Below, piece after piece: positions 19,346 through 44,225 of a stretch of 64,000 nucleotides of DNA (within the stretch, counting starts at the first letter, position 1; every line of letters begins with the position of its first letter). Location of the stretch: positions 6,103-70,102 of the forward strand of contig VHBQ01000006.1 of the NCBI GenBank assembly GCA_016871855.1, read 5' to 3'. This stretch comes from Gemmatimonadota bacterium (GTDB lineage Bacteria; Gemmatimonadota; Gemmatimonadetes; Gemmatimonadales; Gemmatimonadaceae). Position numbers and translations under genes: made by a program. The notes beneath the pieces are model-generated. The model was given only the letters and a program-made list of their open reading frames with translations. It had not been told where the DNA came from and did not search any database.

Positions 19346-20057
19346 GCGCTGGTTCCGTTCCGCGGCCCTCGCGGCGCTTCCGCTCGCGCTCGGCGCGTGC
19401 GGCACCACCTGGCTGTCGGACTTCAAGCAGCAGCCGTCCATCGGCCCGTGGCAGGTGTTCAAGGCTGATTCAGCGGAGCTGACGGGTTTCCGCGGCAATC
19501 CGCTGGGCTCGGTCTCCACGAATGGCACGCAGGTACCCATCTGGGTGGTGTCGTACAGCCAGTTGCCGAGCACGGTGGACTCGATGTCGACGCTCCCCAA
19601 CCCCGTGGCGGTGGACACCGCCTCGGTGCGGCGCGGGCGGATGTACTACCAGATCAACTGCGCGCCGTGCCACGGCGTGGCGGGGAAGGGGAATGGCCCG
19701 GCGACGACGCTCGGCATGGTGCCGATGCCGCTCGTGACGGACCGCGTGAAGAACTTCACGGACGGGTACCTCTGGGGGATGATCCGGAACGGTCGCGGCC
19801 TGATGCCGTCGTACAACCGGATCGAGGAGATGGAGCGCTGGGACGTGGTCAACTACATCCGCGTGCTGCAGGACAAGGTGCCGGGGATGGTGGCGGACAC
19901 GACGGCGCCGGGCCTGCCGGGCGAGACGGGGACCAAGCTTCCCGGACCGACGCGGATCGGCCCCAACCGGAATCCCGCGTTCGCCAAGCCAACGGTGATC
20001 GCCGTGCCGAAGGCGGCCGGTGAGCACGCGCCGGCGAAGACGGAGGGCCACGAGTAA
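19314..20057 (+). CDS. actE: ACIII subunit ActE, monoheme cytochrome c lipoprotein
   Basis: Lipobox LALGAC, a single CAPCHG heme motif and a downstream Met ligand region (GRGLMPSY). The start could instead be GTG 19335, in frame and overlapping the actD stop. Confidence 0.85.
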   Translation: MGRWRCAVIAKRWFRSAALAALPLALGACGTTWLSDFKQQPSIGPWQVFKADSAELTGFRGNPLGSVSTNGTQVPIWVVSYSQLPSTVDSMSTLPNPVAVDTASVRRGRMYYQINCAPCHGVAGKGNGPATTLGMVPMPLVTDRVKNFTDGYLWGMIRNGRGLMPSYNRIEEMERWDVVNYIRVLQDKVPGMVADTTAPGLPGETGTKLPGPTRIGPNRNPAFAKPTVIAVPKAAGEHAPAKTEGHE

Positions 20058-21403
20058 TGACTGCGCACGATTCTCCCGCCCCGGCGCGCGCGCGCGTGCT
20101 GGCGGCGATCGACAAGCCGATTCCGGCCGTCCTGAAGCAGGCGTTCCTGGCGATGTTCATCGCCGGCTTCGCCGTCTTCGCCTACGGCGCGGCGATCGGC
20201 AACGGCCGGGCCTGGCAGGCGTTCCACGTCAACTGGCTGTTCTTCACGCTCATCGCGTCGGCCGGCGTCATGTTCGTCGCCGTGCAGCGCATCACCACCG
20301 CGCGCTGGTCGCGCTCGGTGATCCGCCTGCTCGAGGGCTTCGCCGCCTTCCTGCCGTTCGCGTTTGTGGCGCTGCTCCTCACGATCTTCGTGGGGGCCGA
20401 GCACATCTACCCGTGGTGGGACCTCGTCGGGACGGGCGAGCTGATCCACGAGAAGGAGATCTACTTCAACCACGCCTTCTTCTGGGCGCGCTCGGTTGGC
20501 GTGTTCGGGTTGATCATGCTGCTGCAGGTCTGGTACGTGTGGACGTCGGTGCGGCTCGATGTGGGCGTCAGCCCCGAGAGGGGGGCGTCGTGGGCCGCGG
20601 GAATCCGCGCGGCGATGCGGCGCGGCTTCCGCGACGAGCGGCGCGAGCTCCACAGCACGCACAGCCGGCAGGGGTGGATGGCCGTGGTGATGGCGCTCCT
20701 GTTTGGCTTCGGCTGGGTGGTGATGGCGTGGGACCACTCCATGTCGCTCTCGTACCACTTCTTCAGCACGATCTATGGGTGGCAGGTTTTCATGGGCGGC
20801 TGGCTGGCCGCGCTGATGGTCTTCTCCGCCCTCGTGCGGGTGTTCAACACCCACCTCGGCGCGTCGGACCTCATCACCGAGAAGCAGTACCACGACATCG
20901 GCAAGCTCTGCTTCGCGTTCACCGCGTTCTGGGGCTACCTGACCTTTTCGCAGTACCTGGTGATCTGGTACGGCAACCTGCCCGAGGAGACGCACTTCTT
21001 CACGCTGCGGCTGAGCGGCGTCTGGACCACCACGACGGTGGCGGTGGCGGTGCTTGTCTTCGTGCTGCCGTTCTTCGGCCTGCTGAGCGTGAAGGCCAAG
21101 ATGTGGACGCCGACGATGATGGTCTTCGCGGCCTGTTCGCTGGTGGGGATCTGGCTGGCGCGCTACACCGAGATCTACCCGTCCATCTACGGTCCGCGTG
21201 AGGTGGGCGGCGACCTGCCGGCGCTGTGGAAGTGGAACCTCGCGCTGTTCGTCGGCTACTTGGGCGCGTTCGGCTGGTGCTACACCCAGTTCATGGATGC
21301 CTTCCCGAAGATGCGGGTCTTCCTGATGACGTCGGAGTTCCGGGACGAGGTGCAGGTGCCGTGTGATCCGGAAACCATGGAGCCTCTGCCGGCACATGAA
21401 TAG
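20057..21403 (+). CDS. actF: ACIII subunit ActF (second NrfD-like membrane subunit)
   Basis: 448-aa polytopic protein. The start overlaps the actE stop (TAATG). It is last in the act gene order, and its TAG stop is the first triplet of the heptamer array. Confidence 0.85.
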   Translation: MTAHDSPAPARARVLAAIDKPIPAVLKQAFLAMFIAGFAVFAYGAAIGNGRAWQAFHVNWLFFTLIASAGVMFVAVQRITTARWSRSVIRLLEGFAAFLPFAFVALLLTIFVGAEHIYPWWDLVGTGELIHEKEIYFNHAFFWARSVGVFGLIMLLQVWYVWTSVRLDVGVSPERGASWAAGIRAAMRRGFRDERRELHSTHSRQGWMAVVMALLFGFGWVVMAWDHSMSLSYHFFSTIYGWQVFMGGWLAALMVFSALVRVFNTHLGASDLITEKQYHDIGKLCFAFTAFWGYLTFSQYLVIWYGNLPEETHFFTLRLSGVWTTTTVAVAVLVFVLPFFGLLSVKAKMWTPTMMVFAACSLVGIWLARYTEIYPSIYGPREVGGDLPALWKWNLALFVGYLGAFGWCYTQFMDAFPKMRVFLMTSEFRDEVQVPCDPETMEPLPAHE

Positions 21404-21447
21404 ACGGTAGACGGTAGACGGTGGACGGTAGACGGTAGACGGTAGAC
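21401..21447. repeat. tandem 7-bp repeat array (TAGACGG) x6.7, left arm
   Basis: Read directly: TAGACGG TAGACGG TAGACGG TGGACGG TAGACGG TAGACGG TAGAC. It begins with the actF stop codon. Confidence 0.95.
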
Positions 21448-21452
21448 AACAA

Positions 21453-21485
21453 GCGGCGGGCTAGGGGGTGCTCCTAGCCCGCCGC
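21453..21485. terminator. perfect 13-bp stem / 7-nt loop hairpin between convergent actF and the four-helix-bundle gene
   Basis: GCGGCGGGCTAGG-GGGTGCT-CCTAGCCCGCCGC. There is no clear U-tract. It overlaps the last codons of the minus-strand gene. Confidence 0.5.
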
Positions 21486-21835
21486 GTTGCATTGGCTCGT
21501 ACGGCAGCCAGCAGGCGCACCAGCCGCGGGGCGAGGATACGGAGTTGGGCGGTGAGCTCAGCGTACTGCACTGGCGTCAGCGCGCCGGTGTCTTTGGCGA
21601 AGTCCACGTGACACTCGGTCTCCTTGGTGGATGCCACGGCGATGGCGATGTAGCGCGCGAAGGCCGCCTGGGAGTCGCACCCGGCTCCCTCCGCGAGATT
21701 GGCCGCCACAGAACGCGCGGCTCGCAGCAGCTGCCATCGCAGGTCACGGTCGTGCATTTGCGCGGTGTGCTGCCGGCAGCTGTTCGCCAGTGCGCGCGCT
21801 TGCGCATAGACCTCGAGTCTGTGAAGTGGATGCAT
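21461..21835 (-). CDS. four-helix-bundle protein (TIGR02436-like, '23S rRNA intervening-sequence protein' family)
   Basis: 124 aa. L-VY--A--L...LRWQLLRAARSVAANLAEGAGCDSQAAFARYIAIAVASTKETECHVDFAKDTGAL matches the family core (QL-RAA-SI-ANIAEG-G--S---F--FL-IA-GS--E----L) as I recall it. Confidence 0.85.
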   Translation of the reverse strand: MHPLHRLEVYAQARALANSCRQHTAQMHDRDLRWQLLRAARSVAANLAEGAGCDSQAAFARYIAIAVASTKETECHVDFAKDTGALTPVQYAELTAQLRILAPRLVRLLAAVRANATRRARSTP

Positions 21836-21920
21836 AGAGCGAGGATGGCGCCGCGCGTCCCGCGATGCGTCATCATTCGATCCCCGAGCGGTTCAATACA
21901 TCGCCGCCGAAGGCATGCAT

Positions 21921-21956
21921 CCACCGTCGACCGTCCACCGTCCACCGTCCACCGTC
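21921..21956. repeat. tandem 7-bp repeat array (CCACCGT) x5, right arm, inverted relative to 21401-21447
   Basis: Read directly: CCACCGT CGACCGT CCACCGT CCACCGT CCACCGT C. The reverse complement ACGGTGG differs from left-arm ACGGTAG at one position per heptad. Confidence 0.95.
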
Positions 21957-21994: not shown

Positions 21995-22067
21995 GGGGCG
22001 TTAGCTCAGTTGGGAGAGCACCGGCTTTGCAAGCCGGGGGTCATCGGTTCGAGCCCGATACGCTCCA
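21995..22067 (+). tRNA. tRNA-Ala (anticodon UGC), no encoded CCA
   Basis: Manual cloverleaf. Acceptor GGGGCGT/ACGCTCC carries the Ala-identity G3:U70 pair. D arm is GCTC/GAGC and anticodon stem is CCGGC/GCCGG with loop TTTGCAA. T arm is ATCGG-TTCGAGC-CCGAT, with discriminator A. Confidence 0.95.
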
Positions 22068-30575: not shown

Positions 30576-33041
30576 CTACTTTGCCCCGCCGAACCCGTAC
30601 GTCAGGCCGACGTAGACGGCGGTGCCGTTGTAGCTGGGCGCGAGGTACGAGCCCATGTTGATCAGGCGGTTGCCCCACTGGTGCGAGCGCGACGTGTCGC
30701 GCAGCAGCAGCTCAGAACCGACCGGCTCGAACTGCGCGGTGCCGCCACTCTGCTGCCAGTCGTCGAGCGTGAACTTCTCGAGGCGAACGCCGAGACGCCC
30801 CTTCACGTGGCCGAACAGGCGCGTCTGCAGCGAAACGTCCGCCGCCTGCGTGCGATGCTCGACGGGCGCCGGCGAGGTGAAACTGAACTCGTGGTTCGAC
30901 GCGAACGGCGTGCCGTCGAAGTTCACCGCGCCGAAGCCCGCGTACCCGATCTCCATGGTCGCCATCGTGCTCGTGAACGAGGCCGCCAACGTCGTCTTGT
31001 CGGGGACGAGGTCGAAGCTCCCCCCGATCATGACGTACGTCGTGCGATCGTCGAAGTCCGCCATCCACTGGCTCGACGCGCGCGTCCACGGTCCGAGCGA
31101 CGCCGTGTTCACGGCGCTCGGGTTCAGCCGGTTGTTCTCGTTGAACTCGATGCTCTTCATGTCCGACGTGCCGGCATCAGCGCCGAGGGTGGCATTGAGC
31201 GCCACCCGGTCGTTGGGCATATAGCTCACGTCCAGGGAGAGCTGCTGCTGCGCCCGCTTGAGGAGCCCGAGCTGGTTGCCCGGGGTTCGGGCCGCCTGGT
31301 CCGCGACGGCGAGCCCAAGGAGCGGCTGCACGGACGTCACGTCCGAGTCGAAGTCGTCGGAGAGCGACTTGAACCGCGCCGACACCGAGAGCTTGTCGTT
31401 CGGGTTCACCGTCACGCTGATGTCTGACTGGGTGCGCGCGCGGTCCGCCATGGTGAACATCCGCATGTCCGGGTGGTTCTCGAACGCGAACTGCGGGTTG
31501 TTGTTGTCGGTCGCCTCGGCGGGCGTGTACCAGTAGCTGTGGGTCGGCGCCTTGTAGTCATACTCGCCGGCGTCACGGTTGGAAGCGAGCACGCGTGCCC
31601 GTAGCGAGAGCCAGCGGGTGGGGCGCCCGTTCCAGCCCAGGCGCAGCGTGTTCTCCTCCGTCGCCGCCGCCTCGAGGTGCTCGCGCCCGAAGTCCTCGCG
31701 CTCGACGCCGAGGACGAGGCTGCCCTTGAGTGCGGGCACCCGCACCGTGGTCTCGACGCCGAAGTTCTGGCGGTCCCAGGCAAAGGGCTCGTTGAGGCGC
31801 TTGTTGACGTAGGCGACCGTGCCGGTGGTGTTCGCCGCATCCTGAATGGCGTACTGCCACTTCGCCTTCGGCGTCTGGTTGTCCAGTTCGTAGTGCCGGG
31901 CGAACGCGCGCACGTTGACCAGGGGCAGCGGCGCGATGAAGTACTCCGCGGCGAGCGCGGTGGTCTCGATCTTTCCCTGCGTGCTGGCGCGGGGGAGCGT
32001 CTTGTTCACGAGCACGTCGTTCGCGTAAGCGTACGGGAGCAGCGCACCGTCCTGCTCCATCGTCCCGCGCGCGACGCTGCCGGTGAGCCGGCTGGCGAAG
32101 GGGAGAGCGACACCGCCAGAGAGCGTAACGCTCTGGTACGTGTTGTCCGGCGCGAGCGGCCGCCGGCCGTACACTGATACCGCACGGTCCCACGTGTCGT
32201 ACGTGGCGCCGGCGGGCGCGGAGGCCCACACGTTCCGCCACGTCAGCACGTCAATCTCGTTCTCGAACTGCGATCGCAGGAACTCGGCCCGCACCTGGTA
32301 GCGCGGCTTCACGATTTCAGCCGAGGCGGTGACGTCGTTCGAGGCGAAGTCCACCGGTTCGGCGAACTGCACGTTGAGCGTCCGCGGCGGGCGGTCGCCC
32401 ATCGGGCCGTACCCGATGCGGCTCCCTTCCTTGGCGCGCCGCGTGAACCCGACCGCGAAGTTCATGGACTTCACGCCGCTGTACGACAGCGCGAACGCCC
32501 CGTTCTTCGACGTGGTGCCCAGGTCAACGGCACGCGCGTTGGCGGCGACCCAGGCGGCGGCGATGGCGTCCATCGCCACGACACTGGCCGCGTCGGAACT
32601 CCCGGTGGCGAGCTTCTTGAAGGTGATGGCCATCGTGGACGGTGCGTCGAGCTTTCCGGGCGACGTCTCTCTGAGCACGGACTTGGCCTTGTGGCTCAGG
32701 TCGTGCGGCAGCTCGTCCCAGGTGGCCGACAGGCGCCAGACGCCCGGCCGGCCCGCGGCGAGGCCGAGGCTCTGGTCACGACGCGTCACGTCGGCGCCGG
32801 CCAGGTTGAAGTAGGTCCCCCCGGCGTTCTTCTGGAAGGTGAAGGCCAGCGGCGTCTTGCCGTTGCGCAGATCGCGGTATTCGGTGAAGACGCTCGAATT
32901 CGAGCTGTTGTCGGTGCCCTGCACGCCGATCGTGATGGTGCCCCGTCCCGCGGCGTCGGCGGCGGGCGCCTTCTCAGCGACTTGGGCCGTGGCCAGCAGC
33001 GGCATGGCGGCCAGCGTCAGGCAAGCAATGTAGTTGCGCAT
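30576..33041 (-). CDS. MtrB/PioB/MtoB-family outer-membrane beta-barrel porin (decaheme-associated)
   Basis: 821 aa with signal peptide LTLAAMPLLATAQV. The alternating beta-strand-style sequence is rich in Y/G/T/N. An N-terminal VFTEYRDLRNG motif resembles the family's 'GEYxGL' region. GGAG lies 8-12 nt before the ATG, which is 13 nt after the stop of a decaheme cytochrome gene. Confidence 0.7.
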   Translation of the reverse strand: MRNYIACLTLAAMPLLATAQVAEKAPAADAAGRGTITIGVQGTDNSSNSSVFTEYRDLRNGKTPLAFTFQKNAGGTYFNLAGADVTRRDQSLGLAAGRPGVWRLSATWDELPHDLSHKAKSVLRETSPGKLDAPSTMAITFKKLATGSSDAASVVAMDAIAAAWVAANARAVDLGTTSKNGAFALSYSGVKSMNFAVGFTRRAKEGSRIGYGPMGDRPPRTLNVQFAEPVDFASNDVTASAEIVKPRYQVRAEFLRSQFENEIDVLTWRNVWASAPAGATYDTWDRAVSVYGRRPLAPDNTYQSVTLSGGVALPFASRLTGSVARGTMEQDGALLPYAYANDVLVNKTLPRASTQGKIETTALAAEYFIAPLPLVNVRAFARHYELDNQTPKAKWQYAIQDAANTTGTVAYVNKRLNEPFAWDRQNFGVETTVRVPALKGSLVLGVEREDFGREHLEAAATEENTLRLGWNGRPTRWLSLRARVLASNRDAGEYDYKAPTHSYWYTPAEATDNNNPQFAFENHPDMRMFTMADRARTQSDISVTVNPNDKLSVSARFKSLSDDFDSDVTSVQPLLGLAVADQAARTPGNQLGLLKRAQQQLSLDVSYMPNDRVALNATLGADAGTSDMKSIEFNENNRLNPSAVNTASLGPWTRASSQWMADFDDRTTYVMIGGSFDLVPDKTTLAASFTSTMATMEIGYAGFGAVNFDGTPFASNHEFSFTSPAPVEHRTQAADVSLQTRLFGHVKGRLGVRLEKFTLDDWQQSGGTAQFEPVGSELLLRDTSRSHQWGNRLINMGSYLAPSYNGTAVYVGLTYGFGGAK

Positions 33042-33054
33042 GATCGTGGTCTCC

Positions 33055-33969
33055 TCACCGCGTGAACTTGGGACCCGACGGGTGCTGCGACCCGTGGATC
33101 GTCATGTGGCAGTTGACGCACCCTTCCCCGTACGGATTGCTGGTCCGGTTGTAGCGCGGGAGGTTGATGTGTCCGCCGTACGAGTGGCACTGCAGGCACA
33201 GGAAGGCGTCCTTCTTGTTCAGCAGCTTGCGATTCGTGGACCCGTGCGCGCTGTGGCAGTTGGCGCAGCTCTCACGCACCGGCGCGTGCTCCCAAAGGAA
33301 CGGGCCGCGCTTCTCGGTGTGACAGGAGTTGCACGTTTCGTTGAGGGTCGCGTGCTTCAGCAGGGCGGGGTTCGAGCCGTGCACGTTGTGACACGACACG
33401 CAGTCCATGCGCCCCTCGCGCACCGGATGGTGCGAGGTCTTCGCCATCTGCGCCTTGGTCGATGCGTGGCAGCGATAGCAGCTCTCTGTGGCGCGGGCAC
33501 GGGCGAGCACCGCGCCGCCGCCGCGCGGCGCCTTGGCGGCGTGGCACGAGGTGCAGCTGAGTTCGCCGGCCGCGTGGGCCCCCGTCATGTACGTCAGGCG
33601 GCTGCCGCCGGCGTGGCACTGCATGCAGATGCCCGACTGCTGGGCCTTGGTGAGCGACTTCCACTCCGCCACCGGCTTGCTGTCGTCCACGTGCTTGCTG
33701 CGCGGGCCGTGGCACGATTCGCAGGTCCCGGCGACGGCGGTCTTCCCGGCCTTGAAGTACTCGGCGTGGGCGCTGCCGTCGAACTTGTGGGCGACGGCAT
33801 CGTGACAGGTCGCGCAGGACTTGTCGTCGTTGACGAACTTCGCGCCGGCAAAGGCGGGGTTGATCTTCTCCCACGCCACCTGCTGCGCGCGTCCCGATGC
33901 GCTGACGCCTGTCAGCAGGATCGAGAGGGTGGCCAGCACCGGCCCCCATCTGTACCAAGCAGTTCGCAT
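33055..33969 (-). CDS. periplasmic decaheme c-type cytochrome, MtrA/DmsE/PioA/MtoA family
   Basis: Exactly ten CxxCH motifs in ~300 aa: CATCH, CESCH, CMQCH, CTSCH, CYRCH, CVSCH, CNSCH, CANCH, CLQCH, CVNCH. Signal peptide is MRTAWYRWGPVLATLSILLTGVSASG. ATG 33969 has GGAG ~9 nt upstream, so the track start 34107 is rejected. Confidence 0.85.
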   Translation of the reverse strand: MRTAWYRWGPVLATLSILLTGVSASGRAQQVAWEKINPAFAGAKFVNDDKSCATCHDAVAHKFDGSAHAEYFKAGKTAVAGTCESCHGPRSKHVDDSKPVAEWKSLTKAQQSGICMQCHAGGSRLTYMTGAHAAGELSCTSCHAAKAPRGGGAVLARARATESCYRCHASTKAQMAKTSHHPVREGRMDCVSCHNVHGSNPALLKHATLNETCNSCHTEKRGPFLWEHAPVRESCANCHSAHGSTNRKLLNKKDAFLCLQCHSYGGHINLPRYNRTSNPYGEGCVNCHMTIHGSQHPSGPKFTR

Positions 33970-34181
33970 GCTCTGGACTCCCCTTGAAAAATGTCCTGCC
34001 ACTCGGCGCGGCCCGACGCCGCGGTGCGGCGCCGTCTGCCTGCCAGGTGGCCTTCGCCGTCCGTCTCGACGCGGTGGGCGTCGTGACGGACGAACAGGAA
34101 GCAGCACGCCGGGGGGCCAAAACGGCTTCTTCCTTACTTTATATGGTGCATCGCGTGCCGGTACCGCAGGATGACGGTGAG

Positions 34182-34206: not shown

Positions 34207-34314
34207 CGCCGGCGAGCAGTCGCGACGCGCGCCGCCGCACTGCCGCCGGCGAGCGGACGCGATGCGCGCCGCCGCACTGCCGCCGGCGAGCGAACGCGAT
34301 GCGCGCCGCCGCAT
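34207..34314. repeat. 37-bp tandem repeat: two full copies plus degenerate flanking partial copies
   Basis: GCGCGCCGCCGCACTGCCGCCGGCGAGCGGACGCGAT occupies 34227-34263. It repeats at 34264-34300 with one mismatch. A third copy keeps the first ~13 bp, and a degenerate partial copy lies upstream. Confidence 0.9.
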
Positions 34315-34367: not shown

Positions 34368-36575
34368 ATGCTCGACCCCATCGAACACCTCGCGCGCGAC
34401 GACAAATGGTATCTGGGCGCCGGCGACGGCGCGCTCTTCGCGCCCACGTACCCGGCCTGGCTGGACACGCCGGGGTTCTGGGACGAGGCGACCGTCTACC
34501 AGTATGCCTTCGCGCCGCTCTTCACCGTGACGGTGCTCGACGCGGACGGCGCGGAGATCGCGGTGCGCGCGATGTCGCGGCGCTGGACGCCGGCGGACCT
34601 CACGGTCAGCTACCGTTTGGAGTCAGGTCTCACCGCCACAGAAGTGCGCACCGTGCATCCGGGTGGGGTCTTCGTCTCGGAGTGGCGGTTCGCGGCCTTC
34701 GAGCCGGTGCGCATCCACCTCGTGGCGTGGACCGCGCAGGACGGCGCCTCGGTGCCCATGGGCGAGGCGGCATGGAGCGACGGAGCGCTTTCCTGGCCCC
34801 GCGTGCTGCACGACCGCCGCCAGCAGCCGCTGCGTGTGCGCGCCGAGCTGGCGTGCATCGGCGAGCCGGCGTCGTGGGCCGCGTCGCGCAGCGAGATGAG
34901 CGCGCCGCAGCCACTCTGGCGGCATACGCCGTTCGTGGAGCAGTGGCGCGCGGGCGGCCTGCCGCGCGCGGTGCGCGATGAGGGCATCTCGCCCGACGGC
35001 CTGTTCTACGCCGCCGTGCATCGCACCATTGATATCGGCTACCAGGGGGCGTCGGCGGTCTTCGCGATGAAGGTCGTGGCCGACGATCCCGCGCTCCCGG
35101 TGCGGGAGACGGCCCGGAGCGTGCGTCCGTCGCACGGGACGATTGCCGGCGCGAGCCGCCGTCGCTGGCACGCCTGGTTCGAGCGGATGCCGCAGCTGCG
35201 CTGTTCGGACCCGTATCTCGAGACCTACTATTGGTATCGCTGGTACGGCCTGCACCTCAACGCCACCGCCGGTGGCCACGGCAACCATCGGTGGCCCTCG
35301 ATGTGCGAGGGGCCCGGCTTCTTCCACCAGCCGATCTCGTATTCGGCGCAGTGCCACGCGCGCGAACTGCGCTGGCTCAACGACCCCGAGCACGCGCGCG
35401 GCGTCCTGCGCACGTTTTTCGCGCACCAGCGCGAAGACGGCTCGCTGCACGGGCGCATCTACGCCAACCATCTCATCGGCACGGACTACTACCATGCCGA
35501 TTGGGGCGGGGCGCTGCTGGCGCTGGACGCGGCGTGGCCTGACGCGGATTTCGTCGCCGAGATGTCGCCGGCGATGGCGAAGTTCGCCGACTGGCTCGTG
35601 CGCACGCGCGACGCCGACGGCACGGGGATGTTCGACGTCGTGGACCAGTACGAGACCGGCCAGGAGTACATGAGCCGCTACCAGGCCGTGGATCCCGACG
35701 CCGACCGCCACGGCTGGGAGAATCGCCTGCGCCTCAAGGGGATCGACGTCACCGTCTACGCCTACGTGCTCTTCCGCACCCTCGAGCGCCTGGCCCACCG
35801 CACCGGGGGCGACGCGGCCAAGTGGAAGCAGCTTGCCACGCGCACGCGCGACGCGGTGCGCGACGAGATGTGGGATCCCAAACGCGCGATGTTCTCTGAC
35901 GTGGACCCGTCGAAAGGCCGGCGCACGGGGGTGAAGGCGGCAGTCTGTTTCTATCCGTATCTGACGGACATCGTGGACGAGTCGCACCTGCGCGGGATGA
36001 AGCAGTCACTGCTGGACCCGGCGCAGTTCTGGACCTCCTTCCCGGTGCCATCGTCGGCCGTCGACGACCCGCGGTTCAGTGCGGACGCCGAGTGGAAGGG
36101 GAAACGGCATGCCTGCCCGTGGAACGGCCGCGCCTGGCCGATGACGAACAGTCATCTCGTCGAGGCGCTCGCCGCCGCATCGCGACTCGGCGCTCCCGCA
36201 CTGCGCGAGCGCGCGGGCGACCTGCTGAAGCGCTTCGTGCGGATGATGTTCCACGATGGCGACCTGCGGCGCCCCAACGGCTTCGAGCACTACAACCCGT
36301 TCACTGGCCGCGCGTCGGTCTACCGCGGCATCGACGACTACCAGCATTCGTGGGTCGCCGACCTGATTCTCCAGTACGCCGCGGGCGTGCGGCCGCACGA
36401 GAAGGGGATCACGGTGGATCCGTTCCCGCTCGGCCTCGAGCAGCTCACGCTCACCGGCGTCCGCGTGCGGGGCCGCGCACTCGAGGTCCGGATCGTGGGG
36501 GAGCGCTTCACCGTGATCAGCGGCGGGGAGCGGTTTGAGTCGGCGCTGGGGGAGGCCGTGGAGTTGAACGACTGA
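34368..36575 (+). CDS. six-hairpin (alpha/alpha)6 glycoside hydrolase, MGH1-like / GH63-trehalase superfamily
   Basis: 735 aa. DVVDQYETGQEYMSRY and HACPWNGRAWPMTNSHLVEAL resemble the catalytic-acid and W-G-P-W regions of GH63/GH37-type enzymes. The exact specificity is unknown. Confidence 0.6.
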   Translation: MLDPIEHLARDDKWYLGAGDGALFAPTYPAWLDTPGFWDEATVYQYAFAPLFTVTVLDADGAEIAVRAMSRRWTPADLTVSYRLESGLTATEVRTVHPGGVFVSEWRFAAFEPVRIHLVAWTAQDGASVPMGEAAWSDGALSWPRVLHDRRQQPLRVRAELACIGEPASWAASRSEMSAPQPLWRHTPFVEQWRAGGLPRAVRDEGISPDGLFYAAVHRTIDIGYQGASAVFAMKVVADDPALPVRETARSVRPSHGTIAGASRRRWHAWFERMPQLRCSDPYLETYYWYRWYGLHLNATAGGHGNHRWPSMCEGPGFFHQPISYSAQCHARELRWLNDPEHARGVLRTFFAHQREDGSLHGRIYANHLIGTDYYHADWGGALLALDAAWPDADFVAEMSPAMAKFADWLVRTRDADGTGMFDVVDQYETGQEYMSRYQAVDPDADRHGWENRLRLKGIDVTVYAYVLFRTLERLAHRTGGDAAKWKQLATRTRDAVRDEMWDPKRAMFSDVDPSKGRRTGVKAAVCFYPYLTDIVDESHLRGMKQSLLDPAQFWTSFPVPSSAVDDPRFSADAEWKGKRHACPWNGRAWPMTNSHLVEALAAASRLGAPALRERAGDLLKRFVRMMFHDGDLRRPNGFEHYNPFTGRASVYRGIDDYQHSWVADLILQYAAGVRPHEKGITVDPFPLGLEQLTLTGVRVRGRALEVRIVGERFTVISGGERFESALGEAVELND

Positions 36576-36667
36576 CGGTGGACGGTAGACAGTAGACGGT
36601 AGAGGTTATCCACCGTCAACCGTCAACCGTCAACCGTCTCCCGTCTCCCGTCTCCCGTCTGCACCGT
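36573..36667. repeat. back-to-back inverted 7-bp repeat arrays (left ~4.7 copies, TTAT spacer, right ~8 copies)
   Basis: Left arm is TGACGG TGGACGG TAGACAG TAGACGG TAGAGG, then the TTAT spacer. Right arm is CCACCGT CAACCGT x3, CTCCCGT x3, CTGCACCGT. The left arm starts with the glycosidase TGA stop. Confidence 0.95.
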
Positions 36668-36675
36668 CGCCTACC

Positions 36676-38280
36676 TTGTCCGCACCGCGACCGCGCCGTA
36701 GCTTCGCGTTTTGGACCACCGCAGACGACCCCGTGACCGTTCCGACCACTTCCCCGACCACCCCGCCGCGCGCACTCGACGCGTTGGCGGCGGTCATCGC
36801 CGAGTTCAACGCCGACCGTCCGCTCGAGGCGAGCATCGCCACGGCGCTCGAGGCGCTGCGTCGCTCGCTGGACGCGCAGGAGTGCTCGCTCTGGCTGCAC
36901 ACCGCGGACGGCTTCGTGCGCACTTGGGTCGCCGGGGATGCCACCGCCGCCGAACTGGCCGTGGTGGCGGCGCTGGGGAGCGGCGAGGAGACGGACGGCG
37001 TGCGCGCGGTCCCGGTCAGCAGCCCGGATCGCCGCATCGGGGCGCTCGCGTTGCGGCTGGCGCGGCCGATGCTTGGCGACGATGCCACGCTCCTGACCGC
37101 GGTCGCCAACCTGCTCGCGCCTGAGATCATCCATGCCGAGCGCTCGCGACAGCTGGAAGTCGAGGTGGCAGCGCGAACGGCCGAAATCGACCGGGAGCGG
37201 CGGTTCACCGAGAAGATCATCGACTCGATGCCCGTCGGGCTCTACGTGATCGACCGCGAGTACCGCATCCAGGCGTGGAATCGCAAACGCGAGACCGGCA
37301 TGCAGGGCGTGTCGCGCGACGAGGCGATTGGGCGAACGATCTTTGACATTCTGCATCGCCAGCCGTTCGAGATGCTGCGCCGCGAGTTCGACGAAGTGTT
37401 CGCGACTGGGCGCATCCAGGAATACCAGATGGAGTCGGCGGCGAGCGGCGACCCGCGCACGTATCGCATCACCAAGATCCCGATGCGGCTGGGCGACTCC
37501 GCGGTAACGCACGTCATCACCATCGGCGAAGACGTCACCGACTGGCGCGAGGGGCATCAGCGCCTGTCGCAAGCCGAGAAACTGGCTGCCATCGGCACGC
37601 TTGCCGCCGGCGTAATGCACGAGATCAACAACCCGCTGGCCACCATCGCCGCCTGCGGCGACGGGCTGGGCTATCGGCTCGAGGACCTGCAGCGTCGCGG
37701 CGCCGAGGTGGGGAAGGACCTCTTCGATTACCTCGAGATCATCGACAACGAGGTCCTGCGTTGCAAGCAGATCGTGGACCAGCTCCTCGACTTCAGCCGG
37801 CCGAAGCAGCTTGCCAAGTCGCCGGTAGACCTCAACGAGGTGGCCGAGAAGACGCTGTTCCTGATGAAGCACCACGGCGGCTTCAAGAAGCTGACGCTGG
37901 TCAAGGAGCTCGAGCCAGACCTGCCGCCGGTTCCGCGCGGCAACGCCGAGCAGCTGGTGCAAGTGCTGATGGCGCTGATCATCAACGCCACGGACGCGAT
38001 GGGCGGGCACGGGACGATCACGCTGCGCACGCGCTCGGGGCCGACCCCGGCCGACGGGGCGATCGTCGAGGTGACCGACACGGGGCACGGCATCGCGCGG
38101 GCGGAGCTCTCGAAGATCTTCGAGCCATTCTATACCACCAAGGCGCCGGGGACGGGGACAGGGCTGGGGCTCGCCATCTGCTACGGCATCGTGCAGGACC
38201 ACCGCGGGCGCGTCGAGGTGGACAGCGTGGTCGGGAAGGGGAGCACCTTCCGCGTCCTGCTGCCGACGATCGAATGGTGA
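36676..38280 (+). CDS. cytoplasmic GAF-PAS sensor histidine kinase
   Basis: 534 aa with no TM segments and a GAF-like N-terminus. The PAS region is IIDSMPVGLYVIDREYRIQAWN and the H-box is GVMHEINNPLATI. The G boxes are DTGHGI and GTGLGLAICYGIV. The track start is TTG and the true start is uncertain. Confidence 0.82.
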   Translation: MSAPRPRRSFAFWTTADDPVTVPTTSPTTPPRALDALAAVIAEFNADRPLEASIATALEALRRSLDAQECSLWLHTADGFVRTWVAGDATAAELAVVAALGSGEETDGVRAVPVSSPDRRIGALALRLARPMLGDDATLLTAVANLLAPEIIHAERSRQLEVEVAARTAEIDRERRFTEKIIDSMPVGLYVIDREYRIQAWNRKRETGMQGVSRDEAIGRTIFDILHRQPFEMLRREFDEVFATGRIQEYQMESAASGDPRTYRITKIPMRLGDSAVTHVITIGEDVTDWREGHQRLSQAEKLAAIGTLAAGVMHEINNPLATIAACGDGLGYRLEDLQRRGAEVGKDLFDYLEIIDNEVLRCKQIVDQLLDFSRPKQLAKSPVDLNEVAEKTLFLMKHHGGFKKLTLVKELEPDLPPVPRGNAEQLVQVLMALIINATDAMGGHGTITLRTRSGPTPADGAIVEVTDTGHGIARAELSKIFEPFYTTKAPGTGTGLGLAICYGIVQDHRGRVEVDSVVGKGSTFRVLLPTIEW

Positions 38281-38287
38281 GGCCGAC

Positions 38288-38956
38288 ATGAAGGTGCTCG
38301 TCATCGAGGACGACAAGACCGTCGGCCAGTTCGTCAAGCGCGGGCTGGAGCAGCAGCGCTGGAACGTGGACCTCGTCGCCGACGGCATCGAAGGCGAACG
38401 CCTGGCGCGCTCGCAGCCGTACGACGTGGTGGTGCTCGACATGCGCCTACCCGGCAAGCAGGGGCTCGATGTGCTGCGCGACCTGCGGGCGACCGGCTTC
38501 GAGCGCCCCGTGCTCGTGCTGACCGCGCAGGATGCGGTGGACGCCAAGGTCACGACGCTGCGCGCCGGGGCGGACGACTACGTGACGAAGCCGTTCGCCT
38601 TCGAGGAGCTGCTCGCCCGCGTGGAGGCGCTGGCCCGGCGGCCGCGGGCGATCGCCGCGCCGGTCCTGACGGTGGGCGACCTGACGCTCGATCTCGACAC
38701 GCGCGAGGTGCGGCGCGGCCGTCGCGTGATCGAGCTCACGCCCAAGGAATTCCTGGTGCTCGAGTACCTGATGCGGCACGCGGGCCGCGTGATGAGCCGC
38801 ACGCTCATCACCGAGTATGCGTGGGGCTATCACTTCGATCCCGGGACGAACATCGTGGACGTCGTCATCAACCACCTGCGCAAGAAGGTGGACGCGGCCG
38901 CAGAGAAGAAGCTGATCACCACGGTGCGCGGCGTCGGCTACGTGGTGAAGGGCTAG
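38288..38956 (+). CDS. OmpR-family response regulator
   Basis: MKVLVIEDDKTVGQFV...VVVLDMRLPG receiver domain plus a winged-helix C-terminus (LTPKEFLVLEYLMRHAGRVMSR...VRGVGYVV). Confidence 0.9.
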   Translation: MKVLVIEDDKTVGQFVKRGLEQQRWNVDLVADGIEGERLARSQPYDVVVLDMRLPGKQGLDVLRDLRATGFERPVLVLTAQDAVDAKVTTLRAGADDYVTKPFAFEELLARVEALARRPRAIAAPVLTVGDLTLDLDTREVRRGRRVIELTPKEFLVLEYLMRHAGRVMSRTLITEYAWGYHFDPGTNIVDVVINHLRKKVDAAAEKKLITTVRGVGYVVKG

Positions 38957-43967: not shown

Positions 43968-43977
43968 CTGCAGAAAA

Positions 43978-44032
43978 ACAACAGAGAGACAACAGAGAAA
44001 CAACAGAGAGACAACAGAGAAACAACAGAGGG
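43978..44032. repeat. 11-bp tandem repeat x5 (ACAACAGAGAG / ACAACAGAGAA alternating)
   Basis: Read directly. It starts 11 nt after the TAA stop of the TonB-like gene and is purine-rich and AT-rich relative to the surrounding DNA. Confidence 0.95.
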
Positions 44033-44060
44033 GCGGCCGAGTGCGGTCGCCCTTTGCTGT
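44031..44060 (+). terminator. rho-independent-type terminator hairpin
   Basis: GGGCGGCCG-AGTG-CGGTCGCCC (9-bp stem with one G:U) followed by TTTGCTGTTT. Confidence 0.55.
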
Positions 44061-44075
44061 TTCGTGGTCGGGCCC

Positions 44076-44138
44076 GCACCGTCTTCCGCCTTCCGTCTTC
44101 CGTCTTCCGTCTCCTGTCTCCCGTCTCCCGTCTGCTCT
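44076..44138. repeat. tandem 7-bp repeat array x9 (CTTCCGT / CTCCCGT variants), solo right-arm type
   Basis: GCACCGT CTTCCGC CTTCCGT x3 CTCCTGT CTCCCGT x3, read directly. Confidence 0.95.
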
Positions 44139-44225
44139 CTGGCCCAACCCCATTCCCGCGCCTAACTTACGCGGGTTCCGGACCGGCCCGGTGGCCCCGC
44201 TTCTCCTCTGTCGAAGAGGCTCCGC

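Follow-up and report, generated by a model that had tools for sequence, protein, structure and literature searches.

Introduction

Convergent heptamer pairs, in which two tandem arrays of a 7-nt unit lie on opposite strands close to each other, have been described in Xanthomonas campestris and Xanthomonas axonopodis, where the unit is of the GGGAATC type (Rehm et al. 2015, PMC4692102). In this work we analysed a stretch of 64,000 nucleotides from a Gemmatimonadota bacterium (contig VHBQ01000006.1, positions 6,103 to 70,102; hereafter the window), in which a similar pair of opposed heptad arrays, the 36.6-kb element, lies between a glycoside hydrolase gene and a histidine kinase gene. The window also contains, at 21.4 kb, a cassette in which heptad arrays flank a gene for a four-helix-bundle protein of the PF05635/TIGR02436 family, whose family name is '23S rRNA intervening-sequence protein', and a third array at 44.1 kb. 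Alignment of the arms strongly supports the view that the 36.6-kb element is a gene-less ('solo') satellite copy of the cassette arms. Our favoured reading, to which we assign a rough probability of 0.55, is that this copy acts as a stem-loop.

The 36.6-kb element shares with the Xanthomonas pairs the period of 7 (in Xanthomonas typically with four units per arm), the arrangement on opposite strands with the G-rich arm first (21–67 nt apart in Xanthomonas) and the intergenic position a few nucleotides from the flanking genes. The Xanthomonas pairs are often located inside operons, among them groES-groEL, atpA-atpG, atpD-atpC and gltB-gltD, and their length varies between species while their type is kept (PMC4692102). 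Unlike the units described here, that of Xanthomonas has G3 tracts and was read as a quadruplex former (PMC4692102). One Xanthomonas array, heptamer array #15 of X. campestris (GGGAATC type), has bccP at a distance of 6 nt and runs into the annotated start of XCC0516, which encodes a PF05635 protein (PMC4692102, supplement); Rehm et al. did not remark on a link to the bundle protein. As to number, there are 186 arrays per Xanthomonas genome, and three loci were found here in 64 kb.

A second comparison is offered by the intervening sequences (IVSs) of 23S rRNA genes, which in Leptospira carry an open reading frame (ORF) of the S23p/PF05635 type and in Salmonella are ORF-less. In the ORF-bearing IVSs, as in the 21.4-kb cassette, a stem formed by the flanking sequences encloses the PF05635 ORF, and the ORF-less IVS is to the ORF-bearing one as the 36.6-kb element is to the cassette. 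The Coxiella burnetii IVS holds, besides its PF05635 ORF, two to three tandem GACAGAT heptamers, the number of which is strain-variable, and the 5' cut by RNase III falls at the first repeat (PMC4990558). IVSs lie within helices of rRNA genes and are removed from the rRNA, whereas the 36.6-kb element is in an mRNA intergenic region.

The relation between the repetitive extragenic palindromic (REP) doublets called REPINs and their REP-associated tyrosine transposases (RAYTs) is similar in that inverted short repeats stand on either side of a gene that is single-copy and vertically inherited (PMC3116915; PMC3337134), gene-less intergenic copies occur elsewhere (here the solo arrays at 36.6 and 44.1 kb), and repeat and gene diverge together between lineages. 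It differs in that the gene here codes for a 124-aa helical bundle without known catalytic activity and not for an HUH tyrosine transposase, that the repeats are tandem 7-nt units and not a unique palindrome, and that the copy number in Gemmatimonadaceae is low. Contiguous direct and inverted 7-bp units, functioning together as an array, are also found in the heptad operators and parS sites of the omega2 system of plasmid pSM19035 (PMC9499535, PMC3074150); there the units are bound by a plasmid-encoded ribbon-helix-helix dimer, with no such protein present here, and the arrays are located in promoters and centromeres, not at gene 3' ends. Other period-7 intergenic repeats with many copies, some of them arranged as opposite-strand pairs, are the cyanobacterial short tandemly repeated repetitive sequences (STRR; cited in PMC4692102), TAACTGA of Beggiatoaceae (PMC4679880), which differs in that its arrays are for the most part single and direct and are placed shortly before start codons, and the paired sites of Geobacter metallireducens (PMC2700814). 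No PF05635 link was reported for any of the three.

Sequence and folding of the 36.6-kb element

Read from position 36573 onward, the left array has the order TGACGG, TGGACGG, TAGACAG, TAGACGG, TAGAGG. Using Tandem Repeats Finder (TRF) and an inverted-repeat search, the left, G-rich arm was delimited at 36574–36603 (units CTGACGG, TGGACGG, TAGACAG, TAGACGG and TAGA). It is followed at the dyad by a spacer of 5 nt, GGTTA (36604–36608), which occupies the position of about 470 bp, including the four-helix-bundle gene, in the 21.4-kb cassette. The right, C-rich arm (36609–36668) consists of (AT)CCACCGT, three CAACCGT units and three CTCCCGT units, then CTGCACCGTC; the reading after the CTCCCGT units continues CTGCACCGT. 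TRF reported period-7 arrays at 36574–36603 (4.3 copies) and 36612–36660 (about 7.5 copies), and the inverted-repeat search gave 30-nt arms at 36574–36603 and 36609–36638, 83% complementary and with 5 nt between them. In the 64-kb window, three consecutive CCGTCNN units with at most one mismatch occurred 20 times against 0.08 expected, and exact CCGTCNNCCGTC occurred 19 times against 0.93 expected, all in the 21.4/21.9-, 36.6- and 44.1-kb loci.

The minimum free energy of the RNA was −44 kcal/mol for the plus strand (z = −3.45) and −54.5 kcal/mol for the minus strand (z = −4.0); by these predictions, an imperfect stem of about 30 bp, with one mismatch per 7 nt, is available to the RNA of either strand. 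An earlier reading of this DNA made from its letters alone (the sequence-only reading) had described opposed heptad arrays forming an imperfect hairpin without a U-tract, with about 6 of 7 positions paired per heptad. The repeat searches and the significant folding confirm the hairpin, and the pairing agrees with the 83% complementarity of the 30-nt arms. The absence of a U-tract was also borne out: no T-run follows the stem, where the sequence is CGCCTACCTTG, and a scan of 36300–36900 for terminator and promoter consensus sequences gave no match, so the element does not have the form of an intrinsic (Rho-independent) terminator.

The covariance models of Rfam 15 gave a chance-level match only (mir-6301, which scored 22.9 bits where the gathering score is 70; E = 0.63). 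No rRNA match was present within 20.5–45 kb, and the element sits between two protein genes, outside any 23S rRNA helix. As regards the features of miniature inverted-repeat transposable elements, the arms are inverted, no duplication at the edges was seen by eye, and there are three related loci in 64 kb.

The window is part of a metagenomic Gemmatimonadaceae genome from short-read assembly, with exact protein matches in lake metagenomes (JGI) and homologues labelled Gemmatimonadaceae or Gemmatimonas. In a second, independent metagenome assembly (L001, from JGI sample 3300020221), the same element was present at the same hydrolase–kinase junction, with four CAA and two CTC units instead of three and three, i.e. 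one CTCCCGT was replaced by CAACCGT and the length was unchanged. This shift of a block by one unit fits a turnover of units by slippage or conversion, in line with the local slippage or expansion that the sequence-only reading had proposed for the homogeneous NN blocks. Two further contigs (L002 and L003) end inside or beside heptad arrays, and 20 of the 37 close homologues of the 21.4-kb bundle gene are on contigs shorter than 2 kb, most on contigs of 0.5–1.5 kb. The arrays are thus breakpoints of short-read assemblies, and for this reason the unit counts are less certain than the architecture.

Probable origin of the element from the cassette arms

The left arm of the element agrees in 29 of 30 bases with the inner end of the left arm of the cassette (21414–21443), GACGGTGGACGGTAGAC[A/G]GTAGACGGTAGA, and the unit order is alike in both arms (TGG, TAG, TAG, TAG, end), with the single TGG in the same place. 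The inner boundary of the right arm, ATCCACCGTC, is identical to 21918–21927. The terminal CCGTCTG is common to the arrays at 21.9, 36.6 and 44.1 kb, and the outer end TCTCCCGTCTCCCGTCTGC to those at 36.6 and 44.1 kb. With these boundaries in common, the case for a copy becomes stronger, although it is not proved. The sequence-only reading had already placed the element with the 21.4-kb arrays, as a version without the interior of the cassette, and the arm alignment agrees with this.

We then looked at the same junction in relatives. In L204 and L205, whose hydrolase is 82% identical, the stop codon TAG is followed by a 28-nt stem-loop and then by the conserved block CTTGTCC-N17-TAGCTTCGC; in other relatives an ABC transporter or HSP20 gene comes after the hydrolase. 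Neither arrays nor a bundle gene were present at the hydrolase/kinase junction of the relatives examined. Growth of the element from the local stem-loop of the relatives, in which CCGACAG/CTGTCGG resembles one unit, was considered and dropped for a copy of the cassette arms after the arm alignment.

Another relative, L243, has a solo array whose first unit holds the stop codon of an HSP20 gene; it is made up of CAGACGT and CAGACAT, units that also form the cassette arm of that genome. Two further relatives had no heptad arrays in 16–20 kb other than the two cassette arms. Taken together, these comparisons suggest that solo elements derive from the resident cassette arms or share a generating process with them, and they strongly support a gain of the 36.6-kb element, at the hydrolase gene's 3' end, within the lineage of the window. 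It had also been proposed that the element is the unoccupied target of the cassette. This is not supported, because the cassette is syntenic in the relatives and their hydrolase/kinase junction is without arrays; a derived, gene-less satellite fits both observations.

With regard to the intervening gene, HSP20 lies between hydrolase and kinase in this relative (L201 4800–4879 / L243 1156–1221); the array has 11 units and a GC hairpin lies beyond it.

The 21.4-kb cassette, its synteny and the co-variation of its arms

The left arm of the resident cassette (21401–21447; TAGACGG, 6.7 copies) starts with the TAG stop codon of an ActF-like gene (20057–21403). The four-helix-bundle protein gene (21461–21835, minus strand, 124 aa) matches PF05635 with E = 4e-20 and TIGR02436 with 1.4e-18; it was the one bundle ORF that the family hidden Markov model found in the window, with none between the 36.6-kb arms. 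The other arm (21920–21956; TCCACCG, 5.3 copies, ending CCGTCTG) is followed by tRNA-Ala(TGC) at 21995–22067. A GC-rich hairpin (21454–21483) overlaps the 3' end of the bundle gene. Solved relatives of the bundle protein are 2GSC (XCC0516 of Xanthomonas campestris; 1.7e-14 against the bundle-family profile) and 2RLD, with five chains in each deposition. The narrow family profile found 13,103 clusters at 50% identity. The bundle protein had no match to the defence and phage families of PADLOC and PHROGs. Basic charge was dropped as a hint of nucleic-acid binding for the family, since the isoelectric point (pI) is mixed (median 8.4, only half above 8).

The 448-aa membrane protein encoded by 20057–21403 has no Pfam match, and its gene closes an alternative complex III operon (also in L240, L242 and L243); the protein is probably ActF, because the upstream neighbours carry Molybdopterin/Fer4, NrfD, ActD and cytochrome c domains.

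All Gemmatimonadaceae relatives that were examined, with protein identities as low as 52%, had the bundle gene at this same site. On one side of it the alternative complex III operon ends with the ActF-like gene, which is convergent; on the other side is tRNA-Ala(TGC), and the cytochrome c maturation (Ccm) operon lies beyond. A cassette that stays in the same place in all relatives checked gives no sign of recent mobility. The units have changed at this orthologous site: they are of the GACGG type in the window, L077, L121, L122 and L125, GGCAG in L124, GGGAG in L126 and L127, GGTAGAT in L242 and CAGAC/CAGAT in L243. The two arms have kept pace with each other, the Watson–Crick pairing of an arm being 0.90 with its own partner arm and 0.72 with the arms of other lineages. 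The outermost unit on the tRNA side was CAGA[CT]GG in most lineages inspected, which indicates that the arrays are homologous by descent and turn over from within. Arm lengths at the cassettes are unequal and variable.

Selection for the RNA of one strand was also considered and rejected: the arms of 40 cassettes contained 68 wobble-type (G.U) mismatches in the sense and 73 in the antisense direction, and sense and antisense fold energies did not differ significantly (p = 0.11).

The third heptad array of the window (44079–44140) consists of eight CCGTCTT/CCGTCTC units ending CCGTCTGC and is without a complementary heptad partner. Near it, 3 nt past the TAA stop of a 285-aa ORF without a Pfam match, there is an 11-mer array of CAGAGAAACAA (5.5 copies, 43971–44030), followed by a GC hairpin with a T-rich tail, the 44.1-kb heptads and an amino-acid permease gene. 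A pairing of the 11-mer array with the 44.1-kb heptads was rejected, the fold of the region 43971–44140 not being significant (z = −1.76).

Heptad arrays beside bundle genes in other bacteria

Eighty metagenome loci were found by the protein alone (27–71% identity), giving 67 distinct bundle genes. A period-7 array was located within 350 bp of the gene in 60 of the 67, and 40 had arrays on both sides; in 33 of these 40 the left and right units were reverse complements of each other at 6 or more of 7 positions. Array density was 2.40 per kb beside the bundle gene and 0.32 per kb in the outer flanks of these loci, a 7.5-fold enrichment. In an independent set of viral contigs (GC 39–67%), arrays were present at 22 of 30 bundle genes and on both sides at 17, so that in the two sets together roughly 80 of 97 bundle genes have heptad arrays. 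Four further genes of the viral set (L224, L230, L233 and L237) have period-8 arrays on both sides instead.

The unit varies by locus (GACGGTA, GGCAGAT, ATGGGAG, GCAGTAG, AGTAAGC, AACGTTG and others), whereas period 7, inverted symmetry and polarity are constant; the modal array length is 4–5 units. The two most variable unit positions were adjacent in 29 of 65 cases, a weak effect (p = 0.04). Variation limited to a 2-nt spacer was not accepted as a rule: variant cells were concentrated (77% against 56%), yet slippage alone would do so. Nor could we retain the idea of one unit genome-wide, as arrays far from the bundle gene within the same loci were no closer to its arms than were the arms of other loci (4.24/7 against 4.10/7; 9% of controls reach this value). 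Gemmatimonadaceae are the cases where solo arrays do share units with the cassette.

Some loci contain paired bundle paralogues a few kb apart with different units, namely L198 (614–1109 and 3001–3192; AGTGGCT and AGAAGGC) and L141 (200–577 and 1557–1904; CAGTCGG and CAGTAGG). Very long heptad arrays were seen at L044 6052–6448 (57 units, a Saprospiraceae chromosome), L024 1225–1486 (37 units, a metagenome-assembled genome of Kapaibacterium) and L198 1843–2064 (31 units, a soil contig).

A pattern search returned more than 117 CCGTC-type loci from many phyla, and the arrays are therefore not peculiar to the window; the sequence-only reading had named restriction to the window as an outcome that would refute it. 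A bundle gene was present in only 3 of 117 genome loci, from which it follows that most arrays are solo, in a sample ascertained through the pattern itself.

General properties of complementary array pairs

A census of adjacent complementary arrays gave 81 pairs, with some near-duplicate loci remaining. The gap between the arms was bimodal: 32 pairs were 100 nt or less apart, and 40 pairs had gaps of 301–700 nt that hold a gene. In the 51 pairs not ascertained through the pattern, the left unit was G-rich in 43, C-rich in 5 and tied in 3, and the 36.6-kb element has the same polarity, with its G-rich arm first. This polarity is strand-symmetric. In our view, an arrangement with the G-rich arm first may keep both transcripts from exposing a free C-rich arm, a rationale that draws on general knowledge of Rho loading sites.

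It had been noted that the array begins with the stop codon of the upstream gene, both at 36.6 kb and at 21.4 kb. Both cases are real: TGA 36573–36575 ends the 735-aa hydrolase ORF, and TAG 21401–21403 of the ORF 20057–21403 forms the first three bases of the array. This is not a property of these loci in particular. Across the census, 59 of 162 outer edges fell within −12 to +9 nt of the stop codon of a frame open for 100 codons or more, where random positions gave 6.3 ± 2.4, so that a start at a stop codon is a property of the class. The arrays occupy the room left up to the coding sequence, and, with a period that is not divisible by 3, purine-rich units like TAGACGG place a stop codon in each reading frame.

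Genes around the 36.6-kb element

The MGH1-like glycoside hydrolase gene (34368–36575, plus strand, 735 aa) overlaps the first heptad with its TGA codon. Beyond the element, alignment with L204 and L201 showed the conserved block CTTGTCC-N17-TAGCTTCGC at 36675–36708 (plus strand). This block travels with the kinase gene even where another gene intervenes in the relatives, and it probably serves the kinase as promoter or 5' region, although the promoter consensus scan did not call it. As an upstream region of the kinase gene, the block would put the hairpin where the hydrolase transcription unit ends. The PAS histidine kinase gene (36733–38280, plus strand) starts with GTG at 36733 according to the gene call in L001 and is followed by a response regulator gene (38288–38956).

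Directly upstream of the hydrolase start codon there is an intergenic 37-nt tandem repeat (34207–34313, 2.9 copies, 94% matches). Genes for an MtrB/PioB-type outer-membrane porin and a multihaem cytochrome (33055–34107, minus strand) are located upstream of the hydrolase (window about 31400–34107; L001 1–2602), where the relatives have the Ccm operon; from this arrangement, the porin and cytochrome genes look like a lineage-specific insertion of an extracellular electron-transfer module.

Discussion

On our reading, the 36.6-kb element most probably works as a stem-loop comparable to those of REPs and IVSs, in a 3'-end or intercistronic position. The stem would lie between the stop codon of the hydrolase gene and the kinase gene's own upstream region, where it would block 3' exonucleases, be cut by RNase III, or both, and it would uncouple the hydrolase and kinase messages and not act as an intrinsic terminator. 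This view is guided by two published cases: the Coxiella IVS, in which RNase III cuts at the first heptamer (PMC4990558), and the Xanthomonas pairs, which lie inside operons. The sequence-only reading had offered a terminator or an RNA-processing hairpin. The second is close to our own reading; the first is weakened by the Xanthomonas pairs, which cannot be strong terminators because they are located inside essential operons (groES-groEL, atpA-atpG). The arms would change by gain, loss and conversion of units, which would account for the homogeneous NN blocks, the unequal arms and the exchange with other arrays of the genome, and the arms of a pair may stay complementary through template switching between them or through selection for pairing. 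The bundle protein may bind such arrays.

Several points weigh against the stem-loop reading. The wobble-type mismatches show no strand bias, hence no signature of selection on one particular RNA, and the arms could owe their continued complementarity to processes acting on DNA. Short repetitive sequence is the basis of the copy relation, a shared variant unit in the same position having by itself a chance of roughly 1 in 5, and no transposase or target duplication was seen. The element is absent from close relatives, and whatever it does is thus dispensable. Finally, near-duplicate loci in the census and the ascertainment bias of the CCGTC-type genome loci bear on the counts.

A serious rival, though a clearly less probable one, is that the arrays are DNA or single-stranded RNA binding sites of the bundle protein. 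Each subunit of a pentamer would read a single 7-nt unit, in which a core of 5 nt is conserved and a spacer of 2 nt is free to vary; on this view the 36.6-kb element is another site of the protein's regulon and the hairpin is incidental. The very tight linkage of gene and array speaks for this, as do the core GACGG/CCGTC kept in this genome while NN is free, the solo arrays that share the units of the resident cassette in two genomes and the paralogues of one locus that differ in unit. A modal array of 4–5 units (4 also in Xanthomonas) and the five chains held by each of the crystals 2GSC and 2RLD count on the same side. Against it, slippage of a single variant unit would likewise concentrate the variation at few positions, the solo pairs found close to bundle genes in other genomes carry unrelated units, so that many paralogues would be needed, and binding does not require strict complementarity of the arms. 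The mixed pI of the family does not help, and we know of no nucleic-acid binding for family members outside the diversity-generating retroelements (DGRs). A precedent for contiguous direct and inverted heptads read by a protein is omega2 on parS of pSM19035 (PMC9499535, PMC3074150). Somewhat less probable again is that the element is a functionless by-product of slippage, template switching and ectopic conversion, which settles harmlessly past stop codons and persists for a time. Presence and absence differ among close relatives, the arms are unequal and variable in length, units turn over fast, wobble pairs are without strand bias and heptamers have been reported as an over-represented repeat size in bacteria (PMC4692102), all of which would be expected of such a by-product. 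It would not explain the fixed polarity (G-rich first, 43 against 5 in the unbiased set), the survival of arm complementarity through unit changes at an orthologous site, the 7.5-fold enrichment of arrays beside one protein family or the conservation of the array type (single or pair) between Xanthomonas species (PMC4692102).

We consider it very unlikely that the element is an empty target or excision scar of a mobile four-helix-bundle cassette. Its architecture is that of the cassette minus the interior, the gaps are bimodal (32 pairs at 100 nt or less, 40 above 300 nt), and the presence of family members within 23S rRNA genes of unrelated bacteria implies long-term mobility (PMC4990558); against this stand the synteny of the cassette, which held in each relative examined and to protein identities as low as 52%, the lack of arrays and bundle gene at the hydrolase/kinase junction of every relative examined, and a 5-nt spacer without a gene remnant, with no recombinase present. 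The common class and architecture would suggest a repeat that forms G-quadruplexes, a role proposed for the GGGAATC arrays in Xanthomonas, but we give this practically no weight, since the units GACGG/GACAG hold GG runs only, without GGG tracts, and many cassette-flanking units elsewhere (AGTAAGC, CAGCTCT, AACGTTG) are not G-rich in that sense.

Convergent heptamer pairs, heptamer repeats in general and heptamers in one IVS are already on record, and the hairpin alone would be ordinary, another convergent heptamer pair. In the literature, within limited full-text coverage that leaves novelty unproven, we found no report linking PF05635/TIGR02436 genes generally to heptamer arrays and no mention of TIGR02436 at all, and, with the same coverage, none of the co-variation of arms at an orthologous site or of the sharing of units between solo arrays and cassette. 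The arrays bracket about 80–90% of the sampled metagenome and about 70% of the viral-contig PF05635 genes, a family that is very common but functionally blank. Avd of the DGRs has been reported as a member of the PF05635 family (PMC10053308). The finding joins three loose ends: the heptanucleotide excess of bacteria, the origin of ORF-bearing 23S rRNA IVSs and the role of the non-DGR Avd-like proteins. On the practical side, short-read assemblies break at the arrays, and gene callers could go wrong where these meet stop codons.

As a tentative proposal, which may well fail but which we find worth stating, bundle proteins and inverted heptad arrays could be one widespread two-part system with gene-specific unit families, in which the protein recognises, maintains or disperses the arrays; ORF-bearing IVSs would be insertions of the system into rRNA, and gene-less hairpins and the Xanthomonas pairs its satellites. 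Such a system would have the form of a REPIN–RAYT-like relation with a non-transposase protein, or of a pentamer reading 4–5 units. Xanthomonas campestris is cultivable, the structure of XCC0516 is solved and 186 arrays are mapped, so that the proposal is directly testable there. If true, the two-part system would explain both the bacterial heptamer excess and the function of a family of more than 13,000 clusters at 50% identity.

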